Source: Syntrophales bacterium (GTDB taxonomy: Bacteria; Desulfobacterota; Syntrophia; Syntrophales; UBA2210). Taken from it: a stretch of DNA of 64,000 bases. The stretch is taken from positions 2,176,001-2,240,000 of the forward strand of contig CAXXKT010000001.1 of the NCBI GenBank assembly GCA_963662405.2, read 5' to 3'. This document shows, piece after piece, positions 36,938-54,608 of this stretch; position 1 is the first letter of the stretch, and each line of letters opens with the position of its first letter. Both the position numbers and the translations under genes were made by a program. The notes beneath the pieces are model-generated. The model made no database searches. It saw only the letters and a list, made by a program, of their open reading frames with translations, and was not told the origin of the DNA.

Positions 36938-37037
36938 TATACCGGTTGGGATATTATATAGAGAGCTGGTCGGGCAAATTTGGACAGGTGCATAAGTGGG
37001 AAAGTTGCTCTATAGTGGACGTAAGGAGGAAAGAGAT

Positions 37038-38366: not shown

Positions 38367-38397
38367 TTATACGAGATCCGTATAAACATTGTTCAGG
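38367..38397 (+). other. attI core site
   Basis: TTATACG-AGATC-CGTATAA, 5-bp spacer ACATT, then G|TT (38391); first cassette junction with no upstream attC. Confidence 0.7.
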
Positions 38398-38533
38398 GGG
38401 CGCTCCACGATAAGACCGCTCCACACCCCCTGAACATGCGGCGGCTGCCCTGAGCTGGTTCGCTCGGCGCGCAGCGCCTCCCGAACCAGCGGATGGACTT
38501 GTCCCCTGCGGGGCAGGTCATCCGCCGCATGTT
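38391..38533 (+). repeat. 140-bp gene-less mini-cassette, copy 1 (at attI)
   Basis: GTTCAGGGGG...CCCCCTGAACATGCGGCGG...CCGCCGCATG|TT. Confidence 0.95.
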
Positions 38534-38563
38534 GTGTGCCATATTAATATTTTGGAGTTTACT

Positions 38564-39562
38564 GTGGGGCAATTAGAAAATTATTCAGATTTACAAGAAA
38601 AAAATAAGCAATTTTCTCGTAAACAGGAATTTTCAATCATTGATACTATAGAAGAATTTGATAAGTGGTATAAAACTCTTAAGGAGAGTTCTTCGAAAGT
38701 ATCTTCAAAATCAAAAATCTCATCGGTAAATACAAATAAAATGTACAGAGGGATGAGTGAGTCAAAATACAAATTACTTACTTCTTCTCAAAGATTTTGG
38801 ATTTTAAATGAACTGGAACAATGGTGGCGACCCAAAAGATATTTAGAATTTATAGAAACTTTCGTTGATAACGCACGGAAAAAGTTATTATTCAATAAAG
38901 TGTTCGAATACTACAAACTGAAGCCCAACCAAAGAGATTTCCCAATATTAAGTATACTTCAGCATTATGGTGCACCGACTCCACTAATGGATTGGAGTTA
39001 TAATGTAGATGTAGCTCTGTATTTTGCCACTGAAGGGGTAAAGCCTTCTTCATCCAAAGATATAGAACTTTATTTTTCGATTTACGAAATAGATAAAAAC
39101 AAACAAATTAAGAATGAATTTAACAACTTATTAAATTGGCATAAGGGCAGCTTTCCAAAAATAAGTTCATTTTTTGGTTGGGAAGATAATCAAAATTCAA
39201 TTTTTTATATATCAGATTTTGAGGACAAACCTGAAAATCCACGGAGCTTTGTTGATGAAAGACCTATAACGACCTTCTATAATCAGAATATTATACCTCA
39301 AGAAGGGCTTTTTATTTTCAACCCTTTTCCTAAGAAGCCTTTAGAGAATTGTTTTAATACTGATCATGACGCAGATGGAAATAACTTGGATTTAATACCT
39401 TTTAGTTGTTTTAATATTAATAAAGACTTATCTGAATATATAAGACGAAAAATTAAACTCAAAGGTATTGATAACGCATTTATTTATCCTGATTTGAGAG
39501 TTTATTGTAATGGATTGATCGAAGAATTTTTAGACCAAGCAGCCGAGGCACACAACAAATAA
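38564..39562 (+). CDS. Cassette 1: FRG-domain protein
   Basis: YRG...LQHYGAPTPLMDWS...ALYFA; AT-rich; GTG start after GGAG. Confidence 0.85.
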   Translation: MGQLENYSDLQEKNKQFSRKQEFSIIDTIEEFDKWYKTLKESSSKVSSKSKISSVNTNKMYRGMSESKYKLLTSSQRFWILNELEQWWRPKRYLEFIETFVDNARKKLLFNKVFEYYKLKPNQRDFPILSILQHYGAPTPLMDWSYNVDVALYFATEGVKPSSSKDIELYFSIYEIDKNKQIKNEFNNLLNWHKGSFPKISSFFGWEDNQNSIFYISDFEDKPENPRSFVDERPITTFYNQNIIPQEGLFIFNPFPKKPLENCFNTDHDADGNNLDLIPFSCFNINKDLSEYIRRKIKLKGIDNAFIYPDLRVYCNGLIEEFLDQAAEAHNK

Positions 39563-39607
39563 ATGCAGGGGACGCAAAAAGCCGCGCCCCTGATTTTAGC
39601 GTTCGAT
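39550..39607 (+). other. attC 1
   Basis: ACACAAC-5-AATGCAGG...CCTGATT-5-GTTCGAT; R'' complements the cassette start GTTGTGT. Confidence 0.9.
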
Positions 39608-39631
39608 GTATGATGATTATGGGGGCTGATC

Positions 39632-40393
39632 ATGGGTTTTGACAAATCCGAAATAGCACAACTTCTTGCAGATTGTGGCCGAAGGTGTTGCATCTGCGGC
39701 AGATTGCACAAAGTCCAGGTTCATCACATTGTCCCGGGCGATGATGATATAAGCAATGGTATTCCTCTTTGCCCAAATTGTCATGATGAGGCCCACACTG
39801 AGTACTCTACAGGTAGAACAACTCGAACATATACGCATGAAGAATTGAAGCTTCATCGCAAGAGAACAATTGAACAAGTGAAGCGAGAAGCAAAGTGGAA
39901 ACCAGGTGGTGCTGATTGGCGCAAAGACAAAAAGTTGGTAGCGTTTTTCGCACAATGTTTAGATCGACCTGCTTTCCGTACATACTTCCATCAGGAACTT
40001 AGTTTTTCTGCGTTCGATCAAGCAATGGAAGACACTATTGTAGCCCTAAACACGGGATATTGGAAAATGAGGGATGGCACTTTGATTAAAAGAGCAGAAG
40101 GAAAAGCTTGTGTCGTCAATCCATTGTGGCGTGGAAAGCTTGAACAAATTACTAATCTCATCGAAGATGTTCGGCGAAAGTTTGCAGACCTATTTGGATT
40201 TAACGAAATGCTTTTCCATTTGCGTGGGCCACGCCATTTACACAATCAAGAGTTGGAAGCTTATATGGAAGGTTTTCGAGGAAATAGAGACCTTGGTCAA
40301 TGGATGGATAAGAAACGTCAGGAAGCAATTGACGTCATGAACTCGATTCTTGAAGAGGTAGGAATGCAACCTCTCCGAGGGCTTCGAGAGTAA
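39632..40393 (+). CDS. Cassette 2: HNH endonuclease-domain protein
   Basis: N-terminal CCIC...HHIV...N..PLCPNCH. Confidence 0.8.
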   Translation: MGFDKSEIAQLLADCGRRCCICGRLHKVQVHHIVPGDDDISNGIPLCPNCHDEAHTEYSTGRTTRTYTHEELKLHRKRTIEQVKREAKWKPGGADWRKDKKLVAFFAQCLDRPAFRTYFHQELSFSAFDQAMEDTIVALNTGYWKMRDGTLIKRAEGKACVVNPLWRGKLEQITNLIEDVRRKFADLFGFNEMLFHLRGPRHLHNQELEAYMEGFRGNRDLGQWMDKKRQEAIDVMNSILEEVGMQPLRGLRE

Positions 40394-40398
40394 AAAAC

Positions 40399-40455
40399 AT
40401 CGAACAAATTAATCCAGCGGACGGCTTACAGCCGCCGCTGATCATTGCGTTCAGG
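40399..40455 (+). other. attC 2
   Basis: ATCGAAC...AATCCAGCGG...CCGCTGAT...GTTCAGG. Confidence 0.9.
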
Positions 40456-40591
40456 GGGCGCTCCGCGATAAGACCGCTCCACACCCCCTGAACATGCGGC
40501 GGCTGCCCTGAGCTGGTTCGCTCGGCGCGCAGCGCCTCCCGAACCAGCGGATGGACTTGTCCCCTGCGGGGGAGGTCATCCGCCGCATGTT
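40449..40591 (+). repeat. 140-bp gene-less mini-cassette, copy 2
   Basis: One difference from copy 3. Confidence 0.95.
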
Positions 40592-40629
40592 CGGCTACAA
40601 AAAGGAGGAATGATAAAAAGTCTTCATGA

Positions 40630-40800
40630 GCTGTGAATTGGGATACACTGTTTGAAACTTTATAGTTTTGGGCAGCAAGGCTACTGTTCGACATGTTTAC
40701 TGGTCTTCGAGACCGCAAAGGAGAATGAAGAGCTGTAGCCGCAACATTCAATGATCTTCGAGATCGAATAGGAGATTGGGACCAATTCACCTGACAGGCG
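40630..40800 (+). ncRNA. Candidate IS110 bridge/guide RNA
   Basis: Two parallel hairpin-containing loops carrying AAAGGAG (target-like) and CATTC/ATAGGAG (donor-junction match). Confidence 0.6.
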
Positions 40801-40826
40801 CTGTCCAAGATGTGAGGAGGCGTTCT

Positions 40827-41939
40827 ATGAAGATGAGTATCGGGGTTGACCTTCACAAGACGCAGTTTACCGTTTGTTGTTTGAGTGAAGATCGGAGTGT
40901 TCAGGAGTCGGGCATCTACCCGACGACTGATCGAGGTTACCGGGCATTTATCATGAAGGTGTCCAACTGGAATGAGGGCGGTTACGAGGTCACGGCAGCG
41001 GTGGAATCAACAGGGAACACCCGACACTTTCGCAACCGGTTTTTGAAGGCGGGGATTGAGGTCAAGATAGTGAACACCTTGAAATTCAAGGTTGTAAATG
41101 AGTCAGTAAAAAAGACTGACAAGCATGATTCCCGCACATTGGCTGAGTTTCTTGAGAAAGATATGCTTCCCGAGTCCATTCTTTGTTCGCAGGAAAGCGA
41201 GGACATTCGAAGGCTTCTCAAGTCACGTTCTGTTCTGGTGAAAGCTTTGGTATCCTTGAAAAACCAGATACACGGTTTATTGCTTGGATATGGGATAGAG
41301 AGTCGGCGGGGACAGCTGCAGAGCAAAAAAGAAAGGCAGCGAATCCTTGACGGTCTCGCGGACCATAGGAGTTACGGAAACGCTGCCCGAGCGGTAAAAC
41401 CGCTTCTTGGTACAATAGACCAAATTGCATCCGAGGTCAAAGGACTTGAGCGCGTATTATCTGATCTTGTTTCTGAAGACGAGGATGTTGCTCTGTTGCA
41501 AACGATTCCTGGCGTTGGAATAATAACAGCAGCGACGATTCGGGCTTATACCGATGACATCAACCGATATGAGAGCGCCAAGCAGTATGCTGCTCATGCC
41601 GGTTTGGTACCATGGGTTCAAAACTCCAACAAGACCATTCGCCATGGTCATATTACCAAGCGAGGCCCCGTGGAACTGAGGACGGCTTTTGTGCAAATGG
41701 TAATGGGGATGCTACGGCTTCGGAATAAAACCGATGGATATTGGCTTATGTACAAATACAAAGCCATGAAAGAGAACAAGGGAACCGGGAAGAGCGTAAT
41801 AGCGACGGCGCGAAAGATGAGCACTATTGTATATGCCATCTTGAAGAAGGGGGAGCCGTTTGATCCATCGAAAATGCTGCCAGACCCGAAATATGTAGAG
41901 ATGAGTAAGGTTGCGAGGTGTTATGCTTTGGCCGTTTAA
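40827..41939 (+). CDS. IS110-family DEDD recombinase/transposase
   Basis: IGVDLHK, VESTG, KTDKHDS, TIPGVG, GLVP...NSN, ARK. Confidence 0.93.
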   Translation: MKMSIGVDLHKTQFTVCCLSEDRSVQESGIYPTTDRGYRAFIMKVSNWNEGGYEVTAAVESTGNTRHFRNRFLKAGIEVKIVNTLKFKVVNESVKKTDKHDSRTLAEFLEKDMLPESILCSQESEDIRRLLKSRSVLVKALVSLKNQIHGLLLGYGIESRRGQLQSKKERQRILDGLADHRSYGNAARAVKPLLGTIDQIASEVKGLERVLSDLVSEDEDVALLQTIPGVGIITAATIRAYTDDINRYESAKQYAAHAGLVPWVQNSNKTIRHGHITKRGPVELRTAFVQMVMGMLRLRNKTDGYWLMYKYKAMKENKGTGKSVIATARKMSTIVYAILKKGEPFDPSKMLPDPKYVEMSKVARCYALAV

Positions 41940-42002
41940 ATTTTAACCATGGGCCTGTTTGACAGGCTCTCCATGAATTGACTTTTTATAGGAGTTAAAA
42001 AT

Positions 42003-42677
42003 ATGACAATAAGCGATGCACTAATGATAATAGCCGTTTTAGCTGCTCCTTTCCTAGCGGTTTTTGCACAAAGACAAATTGATTTATGGCGGGAACAAAG
42101 ACAAAGAAAATTATGGGTTTTTAAAACACTTATGGCCACACGTGGTCGAACTTTGTCTCCAGAGTATGTACAAGCTCTAAACATGATAGAACTTGAATTC
42201 CAAAAATCTTCTGAGAAACCTATCCGCGATGCATGGAAAGAGTACCATGATCATCTAAACTCTTATCCTCGTGAAGGTGAAAATCAGAAGGAGAGAGCTG
42301 CTGTGTGGGATGAAGCGTTGGCAAAACTGCTTGCTAATCTTCTTATTAAGATGAGTAAGGCTTTCTCATATGAGTTTGACGTAGTACAAATAAAGAAAGG
42401 GGCTTATTCACCTAAAGGTCATGCAACCACAGAAATCGAACTTCAGTTACTTAGGCGTTTTGCACTAGAATGGCTTGCTGGTGAAAGGAAGGTGTCTGTT
42501 TCAATAGTGCCTAAAGACGATGAGTCCGCTAAACAAGGTCAAGTATTTATGGCTGGTTTATCGGGCATTATCGAAGGCCAAAAACAAATAAAAGTTGAAT
42601 TGGTTTCTCAAATGGATGGTGATGACAAGCCGAACAATACTAATTCAGCCGACGCAAAAAGCCGCGCGGCTGATTAG
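42003..42677 (+). CDS. Cassette 3: N-terminal TM protein (DUF6680-like)
   Basis: TM helix followed by FKTLMATR...ALNMIELEF; reads through into attC. Confidence 0.7.
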   Translation: MTISDALMIIAVLAAPFLAVFAQRQIDLWREQRQRKLWVFKTLMATRGRTLSPEYVQALNMIELEFQKSSEKPIRDAWKEYHDHLNSYPREGENQKERAAVWDEALAKLLANLLIKMSKAFSYEFDVVQIKKGAYSPKGHATTEIELQLLRRFALEWLAGERKVSVSIVPKDDESAKQGQVFMAGLSGIIEGQKQIKVELVSQMDGDDKPNNTNSADAKSRAAD

Positions 42678-42688
42678 TGCCGTTCAGG
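42629..42688 (+). other. attC 3
   Basis: GCCGAAC (complements GTTCGGC at 40589)...TCAGCC...GGCTGA...GTTCAGG. Confidence 0.9.
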
Positions 42689-42824
42689 GGGCGCTCCGCG
42701 ATAAGACCGCTCCACACCCCCTGAACATGCGGCGGCTGCCCTGAGCTGGTTCGCTCGGCGCGCAGCGCCTCCCGAACCAGCGGATGGACTTGTCCCCTGC
42801 GGGGCAGGTCATCCGCCGCATGTT
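42682..42824 (+). repeat. 140-bp gene-less mini-cassette, copy 3
   Basis: Consensus-like copy. Confidence 0.95.
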
Positions 42825-42846
42825 ATAGCAATTTAATGATAAAAAT

Positions 42847-43998
42847 ATGGTAGATACGCAAAAATTAAATAGGTCATTAGATTTAATATTGAAAGATTTT
42901 ATTCCTGATGATGAAGCCAATCAACACTGGAGAGATCCGAATGCCGGTCACCTAGCAAATATCAAATTTGAAGATAAGCCTCCTCCGTATATTGTTTTTA
43001 TTATATTTGTATACTTAAAAAAGTACTCATTTGGAGGCCAATGGGAAAAAGTTAATTGGGAAATACCAATTAAGTATAAAAATGTACCCATGATGTTAGC
43101 ACATAAAAAATTTGGGTTCCAAATTCTAACATATTCTGGCGTACCTAAGGATAATCAAATAGCTATTGAAGCACTAAATAAAATAAAAAAAGCAATCCCA
43201 ATAGCAGAAAAACTAATTCAACCGACTATAAAAAGTCTCGTAGATTCTGGAAAAATCACTATTTCAAACGATTATTATCAGCTTCGATCACGCTATGAAT
43301 ATTTTAGAAATGAAGCCGAGTCTCATTTATTAAACAATGAAAAAGAAGACTTTGATTTCAGTTCCTTTCAAGACCACTTAACCGCACTTAATTCTTGGTT
43401 ACAGCAAAAAAATAAAGGCGCCAATTATGCTTTTGCCATGATTGATTCATACTTTAGTCTGCTTGAGCACGTATTAGTATTGATAAAACCTTTCATCACG
43501 ATTTCTGAAACTGAAACTGAATTATCAAAATTTGTAGGACAATACTGGGGTGATAAATATAAAAAACTCTTTGATATAACAAAGGGTGGTCTTCCAAAAG
43601 TTCATTATGATGCGCTTTACGAAGTAAAAGAACGTTATCGGAACATCGCATCACATGGTAATTTTGAAAAAGGTGGTGGTTCGTTTTTAGTCCATATGCC
43701 ACACATAGGTGCGATTCCAATGTCACTAACCCAAAATAAATCACATTTTACTTTTTCAACGCCAAATGAACTTGAATTTGCAGCAATATGTAGTGTTTTT
43801 GATAGTTTTGATAACTTTCTTGATAGTGCCAGTATGACAAAATATGGGATGTTGTATATTAAGAGTGGCAATCATGTCATATTTGATGATGATACAAAAA
43901 GCACCTATTTAAATGCGATGAAATCTGAAAAAGATTTCAATGAATTTATTGAGTATATGGAGCAGCAATTTAATGATGCTTTAAATATGGATTGGTAA
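42847..43998 (+). CDS. Cassette 4: hypothetical protein with HEPN-like RxxxxH motif
   Basis: 383-aa AT-rich ORF; RNIASH in a helical region. Confidence 0.6.
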   Translation: MVDTQKLNRSLDLILKDFIPDDEANQHWRDPNAGHLANIKFEDKPPPYIVFIIFVYLKKYSFGGQWEKVNWEIPIKYKNVPMMLAHKKFGFQILTYSGVPKDNQIAIEALNKIKKAIPIAEKLIQPTIKSLVDSGKITISNDYYQLRSRYEYFRNEAESHLLNNEKEDFDFSSFQDHLTALNSWLQQKNKGANYAFAMIDSYFSLLEHVLVLIKPFITISETETELSKFVGQYWGDKYKKLFDITKGGLPKVHYDALYEVKERYRNIASHGNFEKGGGSFLVHMPHIGAIPMSLTQNKSHFTFSTPNELEFAAICSVFDSFDNFLDSASMTKYGMLYIKSGNHVIFDDDTKSTYLNAMKSEKDFNEFIEYMEQQFNDALNMDW

Positions 43999-44000
43999 AG

Positions 44001-44078
44001 CTATAACAAATAATTCAACTCGGAATGTCTAAAAGCGCTTTCGCGCTTCTAGACATCCGGTTAATTATGCTGTTAGCA
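44001..44078 (+). other. attC 4
   Basis: CTATAAC...ATTCAAC...GTTAAT...GTTAGCA. Confidence 0.9.
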
Positions 44079-44157
44079 ATGAAAAAGCAGAGTATTTTGA
44101 GGTTGTTTTTGCATAATAATAGTTTAACAGATTAATTCCATTTTTTCGGAGAGTTAA

Positions 44158-44487
44158 ATGAAGTGGATACTTTTATCAATTGCTATATTGTCAGAACTTG
44201 GTGGTTCAACATGTATGAAGTTATCAAATGGATTCACCAATATTCCAGCTTCAATTATGACATTTGTCTTTTGGGCTATCTCATTTAGTATTTTCATATT
44301 TGCGCTTAAACACTTTGACTTAAGCTTTATTTATGCTCTTTGGGCCGGCGTTGGAATTTTATTGGTATCAGTAATTGGTATGACCTATTTCAAAGAACCA
44401 GTAAACGTAATGAAGGTTATTTCAATTCTTATCATTGTTGTAGGTGTTGTGATGCTCAACTTGAGCGAAATTTTAACAAATCAATAG
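44158..44487 (+). CDS. Cassette 5: SMR family small multidrug efflux protein
   Basis: W..L..AI..E, MKLSNGF, YALWAGVG, FKE. Confidence 0.9.
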   Translation: MKWILLSIAILSELGGSTCMKLSNGFTNIPASIMTFVFWAISFSIFIFALKHFDLSFIYALWAGVGILLVSVIGMTYFKEPVNVMKVISILIIVVGVVMLNLSEILTNQ

Positions 44488-44497
44488 ATTAAAAGAT

Positions 44498-44617
44498 TGC
44501 TAACAAAGCCATTAAGGCGGACCGCAATCGCACTCGGTACGGGCAAGTACACCTTTCATGGCAAACAAGTTGTTAACTCAAAATAGGTGCAGCGGCTGCT
44601 TATGGCCAGAGTTAGCG
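44498..44617 (+). other. attC 5 (long)
   Basis: TGCTAAC...CATTAAGGC...GCTTATG...GTTAGCG. Confidence 0.8.
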
Positions 44618-44624
44618 ATGAAAT

Positions 44625-45164
44625 ATGAAATATGTTAATTCAAAGATGGTTGATATTTCAGAAGTAGTAATTCGGGAGTTAAAAAATGAAGAATTTTGGA
44701 TTCTTGAAGAATTACTATATGAGGCGATCTTTCAACCTGATATTCCGAATCCAATTCCACGCGGTATAATTGATACCCCAGAAGTTAGAGTATATATTAA
44801 GGATTTTGGACAAAAAGAAGATGATTATTGTCTAGTAGCTGGTATAAATGAACAAATTTTGGGAGGTGTTTGGGTTCGAGTATTAGCTGGTGACATCAAA
44901 GGATTTGGTAACATAGATAGTGAAACTCCTGAATTCGCGATATCAGTTTTCAAAGAATTTCAAAATCAAGGAATTGGCAAGCTTCTCATGCGGGAGATGA
45001 TCTACTACTTGATTAATAAAAAATACAGTCAAGCGTCTCTGAGTGTTCAAAAAGAGAATTATGCGGTCAAGATGTACAAAGAGTTTGGATTTAAGATATT
45101 AACTGAAAAAGGTGAAGATTATTTAATGATACTGAAATTAGTAAACAATCCAAGGAATAAATAA
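44625..45164 (+). CDS. Cassette 6: GNAT acetyltransferase
   Basis: FQNQGIG motif A; N..A..MY..FGF. Confidence 0.88.
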   Translation: MKYVNSKMVDISEVVIRELKNEEFWILEELLYEAIFQPDIPNPIPRGIIDTPEVRVYIKDFGQKEDDYCLVAGINEQILGGVWVRVLAGDIKGFGNIDSETPEFAISVFKEFQNQGIGKLLMREMIYYLINKKYSQASLSVQKENYAVKMYKEFGFKILTEKGEDYLMILKLVNNPRNK

Positions 45165-45169
45165 GAATC

Positions 45170-45243
45170 CGCTAACAAAAGGCTGAAGTCCGACCATGCC
45201 CGCCAAAAAGCAGCGACCATGGCGGCTTAGCCACGTGTTGGGC
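45170..45243 (+). other. attC 6
   Basis: CGCTAAC...GCTGAAGTC...GGCTTAGC...GTTGGGC. Confidence 0.85.
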
Positions 45244-45260
45244 TACAAAAAGGAAATAAT

Positions 45261-45977: not shown

Positions 45978-45982
45978 TAAAA

Positions 45983-46061
45983 GCCCAACAAAATTTTCAA
46001 CCCGCCTTTCCCCGCAGCTCGTTCCTCGCTCTGGGAAAAGCGGGTTAAACAGGCGTTCAGG
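45983..46061 (+). other. attC 7
   Basis: GCCCAAC...TTTCAACCCGC...GCGGGTTAAA...GTTCAGG. Confidence 0.88.
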
Positions 46062-46197
46062 GGACGCTCCGCGATGAGATCGCTCCACGCCCCCTGAACA
46101 TGCGGCGGCTGCCCTGAGCTGGTTCGCTCGGCGCACAGCGCCTCCCGAACCAGCGGATGGACTTGTCCCCTGCGGGGCAGGTCATCCGCCGCATGTT
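46055..46197 (+). repeat. 140-bp gene-less mini-cassette, copy 4
   Basis: About 5 substitutions versus copy 3. Confidence 0.95.
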
Positions 46198-46913
46198 AGG
46201 GCTTAAGAAAAAATGTCACAATTATCCTACGCACGAATAATGCTGGAGCAAATGGGGATACCATTTGAGGATATTCCAACATCAGATGAAAAAATGAAAA
46301 AGGAGGCGGATTTTCTAGCAAGTTTTGGTGATTCCAGAGTGCTTATCGAAGAAAAACTAAAAGAGGACGATCTGAGCTATCTTTCAGTTAGAGGACAGGA
46401 ATTAGAGGCTGGAGGAATCCATGAGCATTCTGTTCCACTGACACGAGATGAGACTATTTCGGGCATAATAAGGCATGCTGCGAAACAACTCAAGTCCTCA
46501 TCAGACAAGCCACATGATTTTCGATTATTGTGGTTTACTGCAACCGGCGTAGCAGCCGAGGCCAAAAGTGAACAGTTCATGGCAACACTTTATGGCCGAA
46601 CAAATATCATAGAGCGCGGCGCTAATGGCTACAAAAGGTGTTACTATTTCCGATATAGTGACTTTTATCGACGTTCAGCAATAATAGATGGTGCAGTAGC
46701 TGCATTCGTGGAGGATGCTTCCATTACTTTGAAACTCTGCTTGAATTCTTTATCCCCGAGATATTTAAACTTAAAACACTCAAGTGTTGTTAAACCTTTC
46801 AGGACTGCTGTTGAAGATCCCTTGGAACTTGAAACCAGAGGGAGTGCTTTTATATTAGATAACGATATTGATCGAAAAGACGAACAGAAACTGCTTGAGT
46901 ATCTAAAAAATAA

Positions 46914-47649
46914 GGGTCTTGACTAGAACAGCACACGGAAATATGTTAAGAGTCTAGTCATGTCAATAAGTAACAAGTATGTAAAAAATTCCAAAATTTC
47001 AGAGGCAAAATTTAGAGAGATCGTGAAGTATTTTGCCTTCGATTTGGATGCTCAAACCATCGCTCTTTTAACAAAACTCAATAGAAATACGGTGAATCGA
47101 TATCTGTCTTTGATTCGTCAACGTATAGCTGATCTGTGCGAAGAAGAATCACCATTTCAGGGTGAAATCGAGGTTGACGAATCATATTTCGGTGCAAAAC
47201 GTATCAAAGGGAAACGAGGCCGTGGGGCCGGGAGAAAAACCCCTGTATTCGGTATCCTGCAACGAAAAGGCAGTGTCTATACCGAAATCGTTCCCGATTG
47301 CGCCAGGAAGACTCTCCAGGCCATTATCAGGGGCAAAGTTGAACCGAATAGTGTCATACATTCAGATAGTTGGAGAGGCTATGATGGTTTGGTTGACTTG
47401 GGATACAAAAAGCATTACCGTGTTCATCACGGAGCCAATGAATTTGCCAGGGGGAAAAGCCACATCAATGGCATTGAATCCTTCTGGTCATTCGCAAAAC
47501 GGAGGCTGATGAAGTTCCATGGTATTCCACAATCAACCTTTTACCTGCATCTCAAGGAATGTGAGTTCCGGTTCAACAACCGTAACACCGATATCTATAA
47601 ATTGTTGTTAAAGAACTTCAAAAATAAACCGCTGTTCTAGTCAAGACCC
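46914..47649 (+). mobile_element. IS1595-family (IS1016-like) element
   Basis: Perfect 19-bp IRs GGGTCTTGACTAGAACAGC; 8-bp TSD AAAAATAA. Confidence 0.93.
46960..47640 (+). CDS. IS1595-family DDE transposase
   Basis: EVDESYFG, HSD, HINGIESFW, ECEFRFN. Confidence 0.93.
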   Translation: MSISNKYVKNSKISEAKFREIVKYFAFDLDAQTIALLTKLNRNTVNRYLSLIRQRIADLCEEESPFQGEIEVDESYFGAKRIKGKRGRGAGRKTPVFGILQRKGSVYTEIVPDCARKTLQAIIRGKVEPNSVIHSDSWRGYDGLVDLGYKKHYRVHHGANEFARGKSHINGIESFWSFAKRRLMKFHGIPQSTFYLHLKECEFRFNNRNTDIYKLLLKNFKNKPLF

Positions 47650-47730
47650 AAAAATAAATATAAAACTGAGCCCTTAATGACAATTGACCTCGGCTACACG
47701 AGTGCTTCAATACTATTGCCGGAGGGTGAG

Positions 47731-47797
47731 CCCTAACCTTTTGCTTCACCGGATTCGGGCCAAAAAGCGGGCCTCTACGGTGAGCAATGCGTTATAA
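47731..47797 (+). other. attC 8
   Basis: CCCTAAC...GCTTCACC...GGTGAGC...GTTATAA. Confidence 0.88.
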
Positions 47798-47818
47798 CTA
47801 TGAGATGCGAGAAGTGAA

Positions 47819-48085
47819 CTACGATAGATTTCTGTAAATATCTTTTCGGTGGCCAATTTTGACGACCAAAATGACAAGGATATCATCTTGGATTTCATAA
47901 ACGATCCGATAATCTCCAACCCGAACTTTATGAAAAGGGTTGTTTCCCTTCATTTTTGTCGTTTCGGGGCTTGGAAGATTTTCTGCAAAGCTATCAATCT
48001 TCTCAACTATTCGCACTCTGTCAACTTTTGGAATCTTCTTAAGGGTTTTCGCAGCGGAATTCTTAATCTCAATTCGGTAGCTCAA
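47819..48085 (-). CDS. Cassette 9: RelE/ParE family toxin
   Basis: A.K.LKK.P...RVGDYRIVY...GHRKDIY. Confidence 0.9.
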   Translation of the reverse strand: MSYRIEIKNSAAKTLKKIPKVDRVRIVEKIDSFAENLPSPETTKMKGNNPFHKVRVGDYRIVYEIQDDILVILVVKIGHRKDIYRNLS

Positions 48086-48333
48086 AGTTCAAGCTCCTTT
48101 TTAAACTCCTCCCAAGGTATTGGGTCGCCGGGTTCATTTTTGGCTTTCCAGGTATCTTCAATATCAATCTGTTCTTCTAACTCTTGTAACAATTTGAGTT
48201 CTTTTATTGATACTATTGCAGCTAATGGTTCGCCACGGCGTGTCAGAACAAATGATTCATTTCCAAAGGCTACTCGATTTAAAATATTAGAGAATTTTTT
48301 TCTGGCATCTGCGGTCGTTATTTTGTTAAGCAT
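48082..48333 (-). CDS. Cassette 9: Phd/YefM family antitoxin
   Basis: DARKKFSNILNRV...LTRRGEPLAAIV; own minus-strand promoter TTGACA...TACCAT (48373-48400). Confidence 0.88.
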   Translation of the reverse strand: MLNKITTADARKKFSNILNRVAFGNESFVLTRRGEPLAAIVSIKELKLLQELEEQIDIEDTWKAKNEPGDPIPWEEFKKELEL

Positions 48334-48429
48334 AACTTTGCTCCAATTGTTTGTTTTGTACACCAAGTACAGATGGTACCACATTCGATCGGTTTGTCAA
48401 CAAATTCTATTTAATATAATAATAATCGG

Positions 48430-48554
48430 TTATAACATCACCATTCACAAAGGACTCGCAGGGGCGGACCGCCTTAGTTTTAGCATATTTTAGTGTTGAA
48501 CTCTCATTTGCGAAGTCCGATAACCCTGCTCGCCTGTGATGGTGGGCGTTAAAT
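48430..48554 (+). other. attC 9 (long)
   Basis: TTATAAC...CATTCACA...TGTGATG...GTTAAAT. Confidence 0.82.
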
Positions 48555-49011
48555 GGAAAAAATGATAGAATTTAACGAAATCTCTCCAGACTTGGTTCCT
48601 CAAAAACTGTTACTAGAAGCGGATCCATCAATTGAACGAGTAAATCAATATTTGGAAGGCTCATTATGTTATGCGGCTGTAATTCAGAAAGAAATAGTTG
48701 GAGTCTGTGTTTTAAATTCCATAGACAAAAACAGAATTGAGTTATTCAATATCGCTGTCTTACCGGAAAACCAGAAATCAGGTATTGGGTCACAATTACT
48801 CCAATTTGTTCTGGACAGTGTTAGAGAGAAAAATTTTGAATCAGTGGAATTAGGGACTGGTACGTTTGGTTATCAATTGACATTTTATCAACGTTTTGGA
48901 TTTCGAGCGGACTCAATACTCAAAGACCATTTCATCAACAATTATGATGAACCAATTTTTGAAAATGGTATCCAGCTTAAAGACATGTTACGACTTATTT
49001 TGAAGCTGTGA
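48553..49011 (+). CDS. Cassette 10: GNAT acetyltransferase
   Basis: LLLEADPS, NIAV, QKSGIG, FYQRFGF. Confidence 0.88.
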   Translation: MEKMIEFNEISPDLVPQKLLLEADPSIERVNQYLEGSLCYAAVIQKEIVGVCVLNSIDKNRIELFNIAVLPENQKSGIGSQLLQFVLDSVREKNFESVELGTGTFGYQLTFYQRFGFRADSILKDHFINNYDEPIFENGIQLKDMLRLILKL

Positions 49012-49019
49012 TAAGAACC

Positions 49020-49079
49020 ATTTAACAAATGCGCTTTCAGCCGACGCAAAAACCTCGCGGCTGAAACGGGACGTTCAGG
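49020..49079 (+). other. attC 10
   Basis: ATTTAAC...TTCAGCC...GGCTGAA...GTTCAGG. Confidence 0.88.
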
Positions 49080-49214
49080 GGACGCTCCGCGATAAGACCG
49101 TTCACGCCCCCTGAACATGCGGCGGCTGCCCTGAGCTGGTTCGGTTGGCGCGTAGCGCCTCCCGAACCAGCGGATTGACTTGTTCCTTTTGGGGTAGGTC
49201 ATCCGCCGCATGTT
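49073..49214 (+). repeat. Gene-less mini-cassette, copy 5 (139 bp)
   Basis: About 13 differences versus copy 3, many in loops or giving G-T pairs. Confidence 0.93.
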
Positions 49215-49235
49215 CAGGGTTACAAGGAGAGAATA

Positions 49236-49676
49236 ATGAAAATTTCAAGAGTTACAATACTAACGCTTGGCGTAGCCGATTTGGGTAAAGCGACAGAATT
49301 TTATGAGGCTGTACTTGGCATCCCTCCAAACAAATCTTTTGATGGAATCACTTTCATTGAGCTTCCAGGAACATGGATTGCTCTTTATCCTCTTGAAAAA
49401 CTTGCAGAAGATATTTCACCTGATGTTTCTGTTACTCGCAATGGGTTTAGTGGAGTTACGCTTGCCCACAACGCCGGAAGCAAGGAGGAGGTTTTAGAAA
49501 TTGTGCGGCGCGCGGAGTCAGCAGGTGCTAGGATTGTTAAGGAGCCTAAAGATACTGGATGGGGTGGTTTCAGTGGATACTTTGCCGACATTGATGGCTA
49601 TTACTGGGAGGTAGCTTGGGGACCAATGTTTGAGTTCACAGAAAATGGCGAAATGACATTTAAAAGAAAACCATAA
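49236..49676 (+). CDS. Cassette 11: VOC/glyoxalase family protein
   Basis: TLGVADL...FYE; WGGFSGYFADIDGYYWEV. Confidence 0.9.
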   Translation: MKISRVTILTLGVADLGKATEFYEAVLGIPPNKSFDGITFIELPGTWIALYPLEKLAEDISPDVSVTRNGFSGVTLAHNAGSKEEVLEIVRRAESAGARIVKEPKDTGWGGFSGYFADIDGYYWEVAWGPMFEFTENGEMTFKRKP

Positions 49677-49749
49677 CAACTGGCTCAACAGCGGACTTGC
49701 CCAAAACGCTTGCGCGTTTTCAGCCAGCCGGTTAGGCGGAGCGTTGGGT
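49671..49749 (+). other. attC 11
   Basis: CCATAAC...GCTCAAC...GTTAG...GTTGGGT. Confidence 0.8.
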
Positions 49750-49771
49750 CCAGAAGAAGAGGAATACAGAC

Positions 49772-50908
49772 ATGCGCACATTTCTCCAATCACTTGTCGT
49801 TGTTTTGCTGCTTTCAACATCCGCCTGTGCCATGGAGCCTGCCACACCGGAACTGGACAAGACGTTTGATGGCCAGTCCAGTGACCTTGAATCAACAGCT
49901 ATTGTGCCGACTCTCGATGCGGAGATTGCCGATGGACAGAATGCCGTGTGGTGTTCGTCATTCCTCACTGCATGGAAATCACTAGCCACAAACATTGTGA
50001 GAGCTGATATCTCCCTTGAAGGTTCGCCGCAGACAGCGGTCGCCCTAAACAATGCAGATGACCCGACACCTCACAATCCAGAAGGATCAACATATGTCGC
50101 GACCGGTTGGAACAACAAAGGCGTACTTGAGAAGATCCGAAAGGAACTCAAGGTTGCCTTCCCAGGCAAACCAGCTCCCACTTTCCCGGATATCATGCCT
50201 GACTCCTTCGTCGCATACTCATACCTTGAAGCGAACGTGAAGTTCGACCTTCCTTACTTCCAGAACCGCAAGCCTCTGGAGTTCACCGATTCGCAAGGAG
50301 AAAAGACGAAGCTCACATCGTTCGGCATCCGGCCGGAGGATGACTACGCTTACTATAAGCTTCGGAGTCAACCACGTATTCTGTTTCGCAAGGGTGGTCC
50401 AGGTGAAGAAGTTGAGTTGGAGTTCGCGATAGACCTTTGTGCCGCATCCTCGCCGAGCCAGGTAGTAGTTGCGCGGATCAAACGAGAACCCACCCTAGCC
50501 AAGGCGCTTGACCGAATTAGAAAGGAACTGAAGGGATTCGAGAAACTGAAACAGAAGAATCCAGACTATACGAAGTATCTGGAGAATATCGGGCCCAATG
50601 ATGTCCTCTTGGTTCCTGATCTCTTCTGGGAGATTTCCCATCATTTGTCCAACCTTGAAGGCAAGCAATTCCTGAACGATCCTCTGAAGGGACAGCGTCT
50701 CGATGTAGCTCAGCAAGACATCCTCTTCCGTCTGGATCGCAGTGGAGCAGAGCTGAAATCTGAATCGAAGATGTTCTGTGCCCCCATCCCTACATACTTC
50801 GTGCTCGATCGTCCTTTCCTAATCTACATGAAGAACCGGAATGCAGAAGAGCCGTACTTTACCATGTGGGTCGATAACGCAGAATTACTAACGCCATGGA
50901 CGAAGTGA
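49772..50908 (+). CDS. Cassette 12: lipoprotein with serpin-like C-terminal signature
   Basis: Lipobox TSAC; LDRSGAE hinge-like motif and FVLDRPFLIYM...F...V.N. Confidence 0.6.
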   Translation: MRTFLQSLVVVLLLSTSACAMEPATPELDKTFDGQSSDLESTAIVPTLDAEIADGQNAVWCSSFLTAWKSLATNIVRADISLEGSPQTAVALNNADDPTPHNPEGSTYVATGWNNKGVLEKIRKELKVAFPGKPAPTFPDIMPDSFVAYSYLEANVKFDLPYFQNRKPLEFTDSQGEKTKLTSFGIRPEDDYAYYKLRSQPRILFRKGGPGEEVELEFAIDLCAASSPSQVVVARIKREPTLAKALDRIRKELKGFEKLKQKNPDYTKYLENIGPNDVLLVPDLFWEISHHLSNLEGKQFLNDPLKGQRLDVAQQDILFRLDRSGAELKSESKMFCAPIPTYFVLDRPFLIYMKNRNAEEPYFTMWVDNAELLTPWTK

Positions 50909-50917
50909 GAAGACAGG

Positions 50918-50982
50918 ATCCAACCAGAAAATGCAGAGTATTGTCGCGTCGCCGCGCCAAACCCTGGTTTTGATCGTTCGAT
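50918..50982 (+). other. attC 12
   Basis: ATCCAAC...AATGCAG...CTGGTT...GTTCGAT. Confidence 0.78.
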
Positions 50983-50994
50983 TTTCAGAGATAC

Positions 50995-51054
50995 TTGTAC
51001 AACTTACTGTACAATTTACTGGACAAATCATTTTTTACTCTCTATACTTGTACG
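50995..51054 (+). promoter_or_regulatory. yefM-yoeB promoter/operator
   Basis: TGTACA repeats (50996, 51008) and TGGACA-17-TATACT. Confidence 0.7.
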
Positions 51055-51082
51055 GTAAACAGAACAACTGTGGAGGATAAAA

Positions 51083-51337
51083 ATGAGAGTCATAAATTTT
51101 AGTGAAGCAAGAAATAAACTGAAAGCAATATTAGATCAAGTTAACGATGATGCTGACTACACCGTAATTACGCGAAGAGACGCTGAAGACGCAGTAGTAA
51201 TGTCCTTGGATACTTTCAACAGTTATCTTGAAACATTTCATCTTTTAAAATCTCCTGCCAACGCTGAGCATCTTGCGAAATCTATCGCTCAATATAAAAA
51301 TGGTGAAGCAACTGAAAGAGAAATGATCAATGAATAA
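51083..51337 (+). CDS. yefM: Cassette 13: YefM antitoxin
   Basis: FSEARNKL...ITRR...ETFHLLKSPANAEHL. Confidence 0.92.
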   Translation: MRVINFSEARNKLKAILDQVNDDADYTVITRRDAEDAVVMSLDTFNSYLETFHLLKSPANAEHLAKSIAQYKNGEATEREMINE

Positions 51338-51593
51338 AGGACTCGCGTGGACTGATGAAGCCTGGAAAGACTACATCTATTGGCAAACTCAAGACAAAAA
51401 AACATTCACGCGTATCAATAGGCTCCTTGATGACATTAAACGAAATAACCCATTTAAAGGTATCGGAAAACCGGAACCTCTAAAAGAAAACCTGAGCGGA
51501 TTGTGGTCCAGAAGGATTGATGATACAAATCGTTTAGTCTCTGCAGTCGATGAAGTATATATTACCGTTATTTCTTGTAGATATCATTATTAA
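51330..51593 (+). CDS. yoeB: Cassette 13: YoeB/Txe toxin
   Basis: AWKDY.YW, GIGKPEPL, WSRRI, CRYHY. Confidence 0.93.
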   Translation: MNKGLAWTDEAWKDYIYWQTQDKKTFTRINRLLDDIKRNNPFKGIGKPEPLKENLSGLWSRRIDDTNRLVSAVDEVYITVISCRYHY

Positions 51594-51594
51594 A

Positions 51595-51657
51595 ATCGAA
51601 CAATTTGCTACAGGCGACAGCGTAAAAACCACGCTGCCTCTGAGCAACACGTTTGGC
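51595..51657 (+). other. attC 13
   Basis: ATCGAAC...GCTACAGG...CTGAGC...GTTTGGC. Confidence 0.8.
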
Positions 51658-51668
51658 AGTAAGATTAT

Positions 51669-52214
51669 ATGAAGATAAGAAATGCATCCGATATTGATAA
51701 GCGAGATATCTCAAGATTGCATATTTTATCAATCAAGAGACTGTGTAGCAAACACTATACCCTTGAGCAGTTGAACGCCTGGACAAGTATTCTTACTCCT
51801 TCTGTTTATGATCAGGCACTCGAAGAAAAGATATTTTTAGTTGCCCATGATTCAAACCAGGATTTAATGGGCTTGGGCATTCTTGATATCCAAAATTCTG
51901 AAATCAGCGCAATCTATATCCACCCAGATGCTGCGGGAAATGGAATTGGGACAGAAATTCTTTGCAAACTTGAAGCAATAGCTCGAAATCATAATGCCGT
52001 TCAAATTACCGTTCATTCCACATTAAATGCAAAAGGCTTTTATCAGAGGCATGGCTATTTCGATCATGGTTTGACCTTTCACCGTTTGCCGAACGGATCA
52101 AAGCTTGAGTGTGTACGAATGTTTAAAGATTTACAAACGGATGTCGAACAACGGGAAAAAGCAGCCGCGCCTCATGCCTGGCGTTCTGCGGCGACGGACA
52201 AGTCGGAGGAATAA
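51669..52214 (+). CDS. Cassette 14: GNAT acetyltransferase
   Basis: AIYIHP..AGNGIG, STLNAKGFYQRHGY; C-terminus runs through a decayed attC. Confidence 0.85.
   Translation: MKIRNASDIDKRDISRLHILSIKRLCSKHYTLEQLNAWTSILTPSVYDQALEEKIFLVAHDSNQDLMGLGILDIQNSEISAIYIHPDAAGNGIGTEILCKLEAIARNHNAVQITVHSTLNAKGFYQRHGYFDHGLTFHRLPNGSKLECVRMFKDLQTDVEQREKAAAPHAWRSAATDKSEE
52143..52189 (+). other. attC 14, internally deleted
   Basis: GTCGAAC...GTTCTGC, only 47 bp with no clear L''/L' pair; GTTCTGCGG nearly complements cassette 15 R'' CCGCATAAC. Confidence 0.55.
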
Positions 52215-52220
52215 GCTCTT

Positions 52221-52811
52221 ATGGATGAATCAAATGCGTTGAAGATATATACAGACCGGCTTGAATTAGTGGCGGCGACCCTCGACCATGTTCGGGCCGA
52301 ACTGGAATCACCGGAAAGTCTGGCTGCCCAATTGAATGCTGACGTCGGACCCGACTGGCCGCCAGGTGAATACGATCGAGATGCTCAAGAGTTCTTCCGT
52401 GACTGTCTTCAAAAGGGTGGTTCAGCGGTTGTTGGGTGGTACTGCTGGTATGCAATTCGCAATGATGAGCATTCTGTGTTGATTGGATCGGGCGGGTATC
52501 TTGGTCTGCCGTGTGAGAATGGTGAAGTTGAGATAGGTTTTTCAATTGTAAAGAATTGGCAACGTGCTGGTTACGCAACCGAAATGGCCGGAGCCCTTGT
52601 CGCCAATGCACTCGCTGATTCCCGAGTTCAAAAGATCATTGCTCATTCAACACCCCGGAATTTGGCATCGTGCAAGGTGCTTGAAAAGGTCGGATTCAAA
52701 GTCGTTGGCACCGACGAGAAAACGGGGAATATTCGTTTTGAAATTCATCGAAATGGTCTGCCGCATAACAAAACTCATTCAGCCAACGCAAAAGACAGCA
52801 CGGCTGATTAG
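52221..52811 (+). CDS. Cassette 15: RimJ/RimL-type GNAT
   Basis: TDRLEL, EIGFSI, GYATE, N.AS..VLEKVGF. Confidence 0.87.
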   Translation: MDESNALKIYTDRLELVAATLDHVRAELESPESLAAQLNADVGPDWPPGEYDRDAQEFFRDCLQKGGSAVVGWYCWYAIRNDEHSVLIGSGGYLGLPCENGEVEIGFSIVKNWQRAGYATEMAGALVANALADSRVQKIIAHSTPRNLASCKVLEKVGFKVVGTDEKTGNIRFEIHRNGLPHNKTHSANAKDSTAD

Positions 52812-52825
52812 CGTCGGTGGGTGTT
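52763..52825 (+). other. attC 15 with degenerate R'
   Basis: GCATAAC...TCAGCC...GGCTGAT, same family as attC 3, but the expected GTT reads GGT. Confidence 0.6.
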
Positions 52826-52889
52826 CACGTCGGCGATAAAAATATGCCAAACAGGAATTTATTGAAAGAAACATCGAAGATGAAGTCAA

Positions 52890-53651
52890 ATGAATAATTG
52901 GTTTACAATAGATCAAATTGACAGAGACACTTTTATCATAAGCGAATATCGCCACTGGGAAGAAACACATTGTTATCTTTTAAATGGCTCTGAAAGCAGT
53001 TTGCTGATTGATACTGGGCTTGGAATCTGTAACATCTATGATGAGGTTATCAGGCTCACTGACAAGCCGGTCACTGCCGTAGCTACTCACATTCACTGGG
53101 ACCATATTGGCGGACATGGATTTTTCCCGGACTTTTACGCGCATGTGGCTGAACTGAACTGGCTTAACGGAGAATTTCCACTGACGATGGAGGAGATTAA
53201 AGGCATGGTCGTTGACCGTTGCGACTTGCCGGAAGGTTATGACGTAGGCAAATATGAGTTCTTTCAGGGTAATCCGACAAGAGTGCTGAAGGATGATGAT
53301 GTAATTGATATAGGGGACCGCCTTGTTCAGATAGTCCATACGCCCGGCCATTCGCCAGGACATATGTGTTTTTGGGAAAGGGAGCGCGGGTATCTTTTTA
53401 CCGGCGACTTGGTTTATAAACACACGCTGTTTGCCTTCTTTCCGTCCACTGACCCGGAGGCGTACCTCAATTCCTTGAAACGGGTATCGGCGTTACCGGT
53501 CAAGCATCTGTTTCCTGCACATCACACGCTGGATATTCAGCCTGAGATTCTGGGCAGAATGCGTGATGCCTTTTGGCAGTTGAAGGCTGAGGATAAATTG
53601 CACCATGGCACTGGCAGGTTTGACTATGGCGACTGGGCAGTATGGCTATAA
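52890..53651 (+). CDS. Cassette 16: metallo-beta-lactamase-fold hydrolase
   Basis: IDTG, THIHWDHIGG, HTPGHSPG, FTGD, PAH. Confidence 0.9.
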   Translation: MNNWFTIDQIDRDTFIISEYRHWEETHCYLLNGSESSLLIDTGLGICNIYDEVIRLTDKPVTAVATHIHWDHIGGHGFFPDFYAHVAELNWLNGEFPLTMEEIKGMVVDRCDLPEGYDVGKYEFFQGNPTRVLKDDDVIDIGDRLVQIVHTPGHSPGHMCFWERERGYLFTGDLVYKHTLFAFFPSTDPEAYLNSLKRVSALPVKHLFPAHHTLDIQPEILGRMRDAFWQLKAEDKLHHGTGRFDYGDWAVWL

Positions 53652-53791
53652 AAGGAAAGACACCTACGCTAAGCCCGCCGCAAGCAGCGAGGAATGCGCT
53701 CGCTGTTCAATGCACAGCCGAAAGGAAGCATGTATGCGCCCCTATCGATAGAGGAACAATTCGGACCAGATCCGAGCACGGTAGAGCGCAC

Positions 53792-53881
53792 TTCTAACCA
53801 ATCAATTCAGGTGACGGGAAGGGGCTGCGGGGCTCTAATGAGGGAAACACATTGATCCGCGCCTGATATCAGACGTTCGCT
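53792..53881 (+). other. attC 16
   Basis: TTCTAAC...ATTCAGG...CCTGAT...GTTCGCT. Confidence 0.78.
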
Positions 53882-53949
53882 ATAAAAACATTCTTTGACG
53901 CTGTGATGTTATAGTGCTATAGTCACACAACGTCAGGGGAGGTGATATT

Positions 53950-54183
53950 ATGGGAACAGCGGCAATGCGCGCAACAGTGTACTTAGATCCGGAATTGCAC
54001 AAAGCATTACGGTTGAAAGCGTTAGAAACCACGCAGTCAATCTCGAAACTTGTGAATGATGCCATTAAAAAATCCCTTGCCGAGGACGCTGAAGATATTG
54101 AGGCGTTTGAAGCAAGAGCAAAAGAGCCACTAATCAGCTATGAAGCTATGATCAAGAGGCTTAAAAAAGATGGGCGAATATAA
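53950..54183 (+). CDS. Cassette 17: CopG/RHH antitoxin
   Basis: RATVYLDPELHKALR...SISKLVNDA; own promoter TTGACG-17-TATAGT (53895-53923). Confidence 0.85.
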   Translation: MGTAAMRATVYLDPELHKALRLKALETTQSISKLVNDAIKKSLAEDAEDIEAFEARAKEPLISYEAMIKRLKKDGRI

Positions 54184-54427
54184 AATCTTCTTTAAAAAAT
54201 CTGTTGAAAAAGACTTTCACTCCATCCCCAAAAAAGATTTAAAGAAGATTCTCTTACGTATTGAAACACTGGCGAAAGATCCGAGGCCACCGGGCCACGA
54301 GAAGCTATCCGCCCAAGAGAGATATCGTATTCGCCAAGGCACGTACAGAATTATATATTCCATTCAAGATCAAGAGCTTTTGGTATGGGTGGTTAAAGTT
54401 GGGCATCGCAAAGATGTTTATCGCTGA
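54170..54427 (+). CDS. Cassette 17: RelE/ParE family toxin
   Basis: PRPPG.EKL...YRIRQG.YRIIY...GHRKDVY. Confidence 0.9.
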   Translation: MGEYKIFFKKSVEKDFHSIPKKDLKKILLRIETLAKDPRPPGHEKLSAQERYRIRQGTYRIIYSIQDQELLVWVVKVGHRKDVYR

Positions 54428-54473
54428 AGCGAACCTGTCACAAGGGCCGCTCCGGCTCAGCTCGTCGTTCAGC
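54428..54473 (+). other. attC 17, internally deleted
   Basis: AGCGAAC complements GTTCGCT; only 46 bp. Confidence 0.6.
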
Positions 54474-54608
54474 GGACGCTCCGCGATAAGACCGCTCCAC
54501 GCCCCCTGAACATGCGGCGGCTGTCCTGAGCTGGTTCTCTCGGCGCGCAGCGCCTCCCGAACCAGCGGATGGACGTGTTCCCTGCGGGGTAAGGTCATCC
54601 GCCGCATG
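54467..54608 (+). repeat. Gene-less mini-cassette, copy 6 (141 bp, ends G|AA)
   Basis: About 9 differences versus copy 3; terminal GTT replaced by fusion to a higB fragment. Confidence 0.9.

Follow-up and report, generated by a model that had tools for sequence, protein, structure and literature searches.

The stretch of DNA analysed here (the window) comprises 64,000 nucleotides of the genome of a Syntrophales bacterium (assembly GCA_963662405.2, contig CAXXKT010000001.1, positions 2,176,001 to 2,240,000 of the forward strand) and carries an integron in whose cassette array one short gene-less unit occurs six times. The unit is a hairpin-capped duplex attC: an intact inner attC recombination site and an inverted, centre-collapsed copy of the same site, joined by two attC-type tips. 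It is one family of a wider class, in which unrelated sequences, also from the integron arrays of other anaerobic bacteria, follow the same plan in at least nine families. A preliminary description, made from the letters of the window, had offered two readings, a selfish attC-only element amplified by the integron integrase IntI and a functional structured RNA or DNA module. The first is now the best supported, with amplification by IntI suggested by the distribution of the copies. A non-autonomous gene-less cassette that spreads by means of the host IntI and is selfish or near-neutral is, in our estimate, slightly better than an even bet; its mobility and its active fold we infer from sequence and predicted folding.

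Anatomy and predicted folding of the unit

Copy 3 of the window array serves as the reference, and its parts are as follows.

42682..42726, + strand: H1, consisting of R', an attC-type tip and the outer R''; predicted R-box cap in the circle
42727..42744, + strand: outer arm, the inverted right spacer (8/8) and L' (5/7), with no extrahelical base
42745..42781, + strand: H2, the inverted inner R'' and left spacer with the second tip; masks the inner R''
42771..42828, + strand: inner attC of 58 nt found by the attC scan, R''-5 nt-L''-variable terminal structure (VTS)-L'-8 nt-R'

The inner attC has an extrahelical base (EHB) at position 4 of L'', its L'' and L' are paired, and on its own it folds as an attC with the bottom strand favoured (-15.4 kcal/mol; shuffle P 0.008). 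The inverted copy has neither extrahelical bases nor its centre. The hairpins had been listed as separate elements in the preliminary description, which missed that they make up both arms of a single canonical inner attC together with its inverted copy; H1, H2 and the 12-bp closure fold as it claimed, while H3 competes with the outer arm and in copies 1-5 is predicted to form hardly at all (P 0.00-0.01). As modelled, the excised circle would amount to a single attC with its two strands, closed by a hairpin at either R box and with a bubble at the centre that one strand lacks.

The folding is far more stable than expected by chance (z = -5.0 for the top and -6.2 for the bottom strand; 0/200 shuffles equally stable), and the bottom strand is the stabler one in 28/29 unit sequences. 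The outer R box is paired with P >= 0.94 in 34/34 predicted circles, with a perfectly paired spacer, and H2 is formed in 32/34 predicted folds across families. The L arm varies: in some families the circles show the bulged inner one, and in others, including the window family, the unbulged outer one. The internal GTT in H2 is intact in just 10/21 sequences of the window family and broken in 11/21; the internal crossover triplet is likewise broken in 9/11 readable representatives of other families, with the surrounding pairing kept, as selection against a second cut site would predict.

Across families the units are 121-199 bp long with a GC content of 0.55-0.72. No conserved open reading frame (ORF) was found in these sequences: frames are not conserved and stops differ among them, so a conserved ORF was rejected. 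Rfam gave 0 matches in the window at the gathering score and 0 at E <= 0.1 in six loci with six families. No sigma-70 consensus was found on the cassette strand within the unit. Together with the stabler bottom strand, these results leave the functional structured RNA or DNA module with little support. A remnant of a group II intron was ruled out, since Rfam gave no domain V/VI match. The inner R'' as a working R box was weakened as a candidate because it is predicted hardly ever to pair with the right GTT (P <= 0.001 in 33/33 linear contexts), and a general model in which the unit locks itself in failed, the right site being lost in GAT-type families only.

Copies in the window array

The integron is of the reverse type, with intI co-oriented with the cassettes. 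Its integrase, attI and units are arranged as follows.

35885..36937, + strand: intI, integron integrase (Pfam Phage_integrase and SAM_4; TIGR02249 471 bits, cut-off 265; no internal stop)
36996..38167, + strand: IS3-like transposase ORFs between intI and attI (HTH_Tnp_1 and rve domains)
38378..38393, + strand: attI core with the crossover G|TT at 38391 (attI-like motif at seven places in the genome, two of them followed by a unit)
38391..38530, + strand: copy 1, first array position, after the attI-like site
40449..40588, + strand: copy 2, 3' of the attC of an HNH cassette
42682..42821, + strand: copy 3, the reference, 3' of the attC of a DUF6680 cassette
46055..46194, + strand: copy 4, after an attC hairpin
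49073..49211, + strand: copy 5, the most diverged intact copy, after an attC hairpin; 3' junction bridged by contigs
54467..54607, + strand: copy 6, after an attC hairpin; right junction G|AA, following cassette truncated; both junctions bridged
54744..54804, + strand: eroded remnant of a seventh copy, reduced to its 5' half, where the array ends beside an enoyl-CoA hydratase gene (78% identity over 59 nt, E 1e-5)

The junction list gives 24 slots, of which the unit fills six, about a quarter; the remaining 18 hold gene cassettes that are all different, making the unit the sole multi-copy cassette of the array. All six copies announced in the preliminary description are present at these starts, on the same strand and 139-141 bp long; the seventh half at 54744 had escaped it. 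Copy 1 does lie at attI and copies 2-6 behind attC hairpins, as it had stated. G|TT junctions, claimed for every copy, are found at five of the six, copy 6 ending in G|AA beside a truncated ORF.

The pairwise count of differing positions is 1-2 within copies 1-3, rises to 5-6 with copy 4, and reaches 9-10 with copy 6 and 13-14 with copy 5. This gradient rises with distance from attI and ends in the eroded half-copy. The initial R' of the unit is complementary to the R'' of its own attC at 7/7 positions in copies 1-5 and at 6/7 in copy 6, and to the inner R'' at 6/7. Most flanking gene cassettes were said to keep matching R' and R'' boxes, and 8/10 do (six exact comparisons and two read from the attC scan and folds), the exceptions being the glyoxalase cassette that follows copy 5 and the fragment behind copy 6.

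Both exceptions adjoin a unit. The glyoxalase cassette (49212-49225) begins with the first seven bases of the unit, which mismatch its own R''; this start may be what a lost tandem copy, or hairpin correction, has left behind. A short truncated ORF (54606-54700) is fused to the end of copy 6, and the missing start of this cassette was probably lost by deletion. The ORF resembles what we take to be the start of a HigB-type toxin, and a Pfam search of it returned 0 families. Near copy 1, a sigma-70 match (10/12; 38366-38395, - strand) has its -35 box across the attI/unit junction and its -10 box inside attI, and is directed back towards the 3' end of intI.

An assembly artefact had been named as a possible source of the copies, and as far as this can be tested they are genuine. 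Each has differences and flanks of its own, and three junctions, one at the 3' end of copy 5 and two at copy 6, are spanned by contigs from public runs that extend more than 31 letters to either side; these runs come from one sample, possibly the source of the window, and are not independent of it. The public-run contigs at copies 1-3 end about 30 letters inside the unit, as near-identical repeats do.

The window family in the genome and in metagenomes

The host genome contains two further full copies outside the window array. One follows an attC in a second integron; the other equals copy 3 save for a 2-base loss at the right junction and stands at a second attI on another contig, with no intI nearby. 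Two 98-bp deletion variants, an H1-only variant and a diverged relative are also present, the 98-bp and H1-only derivatives having arisen at microhomologies. A metagenome scan returned 19 loci, with 18 units in 14 distinct contexts and two loci with the 3' part alone; the search pattern lay within the inner attC, so conservation of that site among these matches is no evidence.

The unit had been described as an independent gene-less cassette whose matches should lie at G|TT crossovers of attI or attC sites, and both expectations hold across genome and metagenomes: 26/28 family copies have G|TT at both ends, including 18/18 metagenome copies. These 28 copies have 24 distinct flank pairs, no circular permutation and no duplication at insertion sites beyond the GTT crossover. 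The upstream neighbour is attI, an attC or another unit in 13/14 metagenome contexts, the fourteenth being a contig end, and the metagenome copies at loci L139 and L152 are preceded by a context homologous to the window attI. One of the 28 copies sits within an R'': a 98-bp variant (L131 5639-5739; G000 C1:881638-881738) lies reversed in the attC of a lone GIY-YIG-like cassette, within its R'', and is a natural example of top-strand attC use.

Searches beyond these sources gave little. BLAST of the unit found the family absent from 60 relatives, with two weak chance matches; among 339 class genomes, with two candidates scored per genome, it gave five weak matches, of which three were real on inspection (L155, L156, L159) and two were rejected. 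BLAST against plasmids and phages gave no match covering >30% of the query. A 17-base-word scan of the species genomes produced 104 matches, none extending past 36 bases, which are attributed to chance and say little about absence; two viral pattern scans gave 12 chance matches and 0. Several attI-like sites have no adjacent intact intI (G000 C1:236413, 1025538, 2673561 and 30443; C2:54191 and 287967).

A wider class with the same structural plan

The preliminary description had also missed that the unit belongs to a class of unrelated sequences. This class was searched with a sequence-free descriptor made up of a G-T/A-T hairpin, a paired spacer, the crossover triplet and an energy filter; a first version was too loose (27 matches, and 8 in one shuffle), and the filter was then added. 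In 77 integrase neighbourhoods of the host order, hand-chosen with long contigs first from the 137/339 class genomes with an integrase match, the descriptor found 11 units in 9/77 neighbourhoods (about one in eight) and 0 in three shuffles. A twelfth unit lay in one of three loci selected for earlier matches. Sixty neighbourhoods from other classes of the phylum, which includes Geobacteraceae and is Desulfobacterota in GTDB usage, yielded three full units, one 78-bp minimal form and one false match (one match in two shuffles), and 30 short loci of the order with a Geobacteraceae genome yielded one unit. Two or more attC-like sites were present in 27/77 and 26/60 loci; with few cassettes in many loci, these rates are rough. 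Beyond the phylum, 20 gammaproteobacterial and 15 viral loci were covered, and the 20 gammaproteobacterial loci, with 65 attC-like sites, gave 0 units. Over the whole 3.8-Mb host genome the descriptor returned copies 1-5 and nothing else. Matches in L255, L314 and L033 and a reverse reading in L149 were discarded as false.

The 29 distinct unit sequences form nine BLAST clusters. Three of them span host families or classes (L162/L229/L260; L184/L187/L259; L139/L300), and congeners carry other clusters. Four features that the search did not ask for recur. Besides the formed H2 and the stabler bottom strand described above, an inner attC whose L'' is bulged at position 4 was present with shuffle P <= 0.05 in 11/15 cases, the left spacer being searched at 5-6 only, and the inner R'' triplet tracks R' (ATC with GAT, AAC with GTT). 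The H1 triplet is GAT/ATC in four families, as found in L boxes.

Units occur in canonical and in reverse integrons, twice per array in L162 and L186. They stand first after attI in copy 1, at C2:287957 and in L139, L149, L152, L186, L194, L229, L259, L260 and L300. In L149 (1065-1357) tandem units of two different families directly follow attI. In L274 (2100-2180) the 78-bp minimal gene-less unit, with one tip and one short site, follows an attI-like stretch and is possibly the monomer of the class. L187, L238, L259 and L300 have A|TT in place of G|TT at the right junction, and their outer R'' is altered to match (AAT); the G is dispensable for crossover.

Other contents of the arrays

The remaining cargo of the window array includes an SMR-family pump, three toxin-antitoxin cassettes (one reversed), four GNATs and a protein with a metallo-beta-lactamase fold (44158-44487, 47793-48528, 51083-51593, 52890-53651, 53950-54427). 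Two insertion sequences are shared with the second integron. One IS110-family element stands directly 3' of the AAAAGGAGG ribosome-binding motif in cassettes of both integrons (window 40612-41994; G000 C1:25400-24260), and an IS1595-family element has three copies inside cassettes of both (window 46935-47650; G000 C1:28215 and C1:19304).

Comparison with known systems

Gene-less cassettes are known, and the unit represents a structurally conserved class of them that is apparently undescribed. No account of an attC doublet with this plan was found in a literature search whose coverage left out most subscription papers, and to that extent the claim that the unit falls outside described families stands.

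Two groups of mobile elements resemble the unit in outline. Repetitive extragenic palindromic doublets (REPINs, inverted REP doublets) and miniature transposable elements with inverted repeats (MITEs) are tiny, non-autonomous, hairpin-forming inverted doublets served by an enzyme in trans, with dispersed copies, target-site duplications and a cognate transposase. The unit, in contrast, is built from attC, is placed in arrays by site-specific crossover and is not dispersed, its full copies lying at integron sites only and showing no link to a RAYT or transposase. IS1111-attC elements and group IIC-attC introns exploit integron sites, encode their own transposase or reverse transcriptase (RT) and interrupt the attC. 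The unit has no ORF and no Rfam match, restores both flanking crossovers and lies inside an R'' in only 1/28 copies.

Gene-less cassettes have been reported from oral Treponema (PMC4909258, PMC6557892), are treated in an integron review (PMC8876359) and act as promoters in Vibrio, where they are 491-666 bp long and AT-rich (PMC11014356). Like the units, the Vibrionaceae and Treponema promoter cassettes are ORF-less, bounded by G|TT, equipped with their own attC and found in first and inner positions; the reverse-type integron is shared with Treponema. The Vibrio cassettes are partly decayed genes with one attC, whereas the units are far shorter and GC-rich, and their only cargo is the two hairpin caps and the inverted copy of the attC. 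Xanthomonas arrays contain an empty cassette for which a promoter role has been proposed (bioRxiv 10.1101/2025.06.18.660453); like the units it lacks a gene and may recur several times per array, and it may bear on the novelty of the class. With canonical attC sites or 59-base elements (PMC2727003, PMC5027507) the inner site shares R'', the 5-nt spacer, L'' with the EHB at position 4, VTS, L' and R', and the bottom strand is the stabler one in both. The differences are an L'-R' spacer of 8 nt, the masking of both arms by the inverted copy and, in the dominant fold, a paired spacer (8/8), in place of the unpaired central spacer of 5-6 nt.

Proposed mechanism of spread

IntI cuts folded bottom strands at R', and extrahelical bases set the strand choice and block attack at the L box (PMC5027507, PMC4792948). 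Cassettes can be duplicated when excision is replicative and re-insertion at attI follows, and exchange of the second strand leads to covalently closed linear products (PMC3458562). Applied to the unit, IntI would cut the bottom strand at the R box, and the excised single-stranded circle would snap shut as a dumbbell, paired almost throughout, durable and without free ends, whose R box is permanently formed. Replicative excision would retain one chromosomal copy and re-insertion at attI would add another, so that copies would be older the farther out they lie. Without its centre, the inverted copy would leave the VTS/L arm partnerless, so that the arm with the extrahelical base may be pre-extruded as a built-in cruciform nucleus and confer strand bias.

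The junctions, the orientation and the age gradient fit replicative excision with re-insertion at attI, and the copy matching copy 3 at the second attI favours the same course. By GC skew, the bottom strand lies on the leading-strand template, which is a low-excision orientation in which sites must extrude from duplex DNA; short cassettes are excised more often in some settings (PMC5371416). For the active fold, IntI might trap a hybrid or locally nucleated fold, aided by the gap at the centre of the mirror copy; the duplex might serve as an attI-like partner; or the integrase might belong to a more tolerant clade. More speculatively, the unit could have originated when a duplex attC was capped by hairpins through L-box recombination or fold-back synthesis.

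A bolder form of this proposal, to which we give somewhat less than an even chance, is that the units are a distinct class of long-lived integron parasites. Their excised circle would form a self-contained cruciform, nucleated in advance, or else mimic a double-stranded attI, and IntI would integrate it efficiently despite the unpaired-spacer rule; they would cross host classes, squat at attI and preserve a fossil record of IntI action at L boxes and of attC copying.

Several observations weigh against spread by IntI. Recombination of the Vibrio cholerae repeat (VCR) by IntI1 falls 27-fold with a paired spacer and 8.5e4-fold when the EHBs are lost too (PMC2727003), although EHB loss by itself is harmless at some sites (PMC5027507). 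The dominant predicted fold of the unit has just such a paired spacer and, in the window family, no extrahelical base. To form the full inner attC, 16/16 circles would have to rise 10.7-25.4 kcal/mol above their minimum (16.5 in copy 3), and a hybrid fold with the EHB arm is dominant in some families only, the window family mostly showing P 0.00-0.05. The 8-nt L'-R' spacer compares with 5-7 nt in 44/51 ordinary sites. The proposed covariation check could be made within the family and gave 1/40 pairs, a minimal signal; in the cross-family comparison the paired spacer was itself a search criterion, and perfect arms can be maintained by hairpin correction alone. Copies 5 and 6 break the age order, and the enrichment of first positions is biased because the loci are centred on intI. 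Two weak eroded H1-like matches lie outside obvious arrays (G000 C1:1253346-1253390, - strand, and L159) and are either secondary-site insertions into intergenic DNA or chance. No circle junction or unit-skipping joint is listed in the public-run contigs, the locking of neighbouring sites is inconsistent among cases, and a benefit of the unit to the host would be compatible with the data.

Alternative explanations

Such a benefit is the core of one alternative, a host-selected regulatory cassette that damps recombination or expression (as a plug of attI, as an insulator, or through H1 taking the R' of the upstream attC) or that supplies a promoter or small RNA. We regard this as unlikely, yet as the strongest of the competitors. 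The frequent position first after attI would suit it, as would the documented promoter cassettes (PMC11014356) and a small-RNA cassette in Xanthomonas. Pairing of the R boxes of the upstream attC is predicted to drop in the presence of the unit from 0.91 to 0.20 at copy 4, from 0.99 to 0.00 in L200 and from 0.93 to 0.02 in L144, but the drop is slight or nil elsewhere (0.62 to 0.44 at copy 3, 0.87 to 0.83 in L186), and the right site of the unit itself is still predicted to form (copies 1-5, P 0.29-0.995). The high GC content and the missing internal sigma-70 match on the cassette strand contrast with the long, AT-rich promoter cassettes, and the features that are conserved are those of a bottom-strand DNA recombination site. 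Distal copies erode, and the family is absent among the 60 relatives searched.

Slightly less probable still are recurrent neutral by-products, in which aberrant IntI reactions or hairpin-templated replication at attC would repeatedly make doublets that drift without any selected trait for spread. Nine families on different attC types, the L-box-like H1 triplet in four of them and the deletion derivatives at microhomologies all agree with such an origin, and hairpin correction alone can keep perfect arms. The same families nevertheless persist across host classes, none was found in the 20 gammaproteobacterial arrays, and the plan, including the broken internal triplet with its pairing kept (9/11), is too uniform for random debris. 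Least probable, and in our judgement quite improbable, is a MITE-like element whose movement depends on some other enzyme with attC or hairpins as its target (an IS1111-attC or IS110 transposase, an HUH or RAYT enzyme, or a group IIC intron RT). Its inverted repeats do resemble terminal ones, IS110 and IS1595 copies share the window array, one short variant is inverted within the R'' of an attC, and the two weak eroded matches (C1:1253389, L159) lie outside obvious arrays. Against this, the junctions are those of the IntI crossover, attI included, where a target hairpin is absent; no additional target duplication is seen; the internal attC with its extrahelical base is retained in all families; Rfam shows no group II domain V/VI; and the structure search of the 3.8-Mb genome returned five intact window copies only. 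A cassette spreading by the host IntI remains the reading that we prefer.

Significance for integron biology

The usual reading takes integron cassettes for adaptive cargo and those without genes for promoters; in the case described, about a quarter of an array is a cargo-free attC doublet. The case holds a paradox, in that the most duplicated cassette bears a fold deemed nearly dead by laboratory rules, and the units are natural test substrates of 120-200 bases for the question of the active fold. They also offer concrete intermediates for the copying and capping of attC, a step in the unsolved genesis of cassettes, and standard attC finders will miscount them. If the units are indeed selfish, integrons would host MITE-like parasites of their own that compete for attI.

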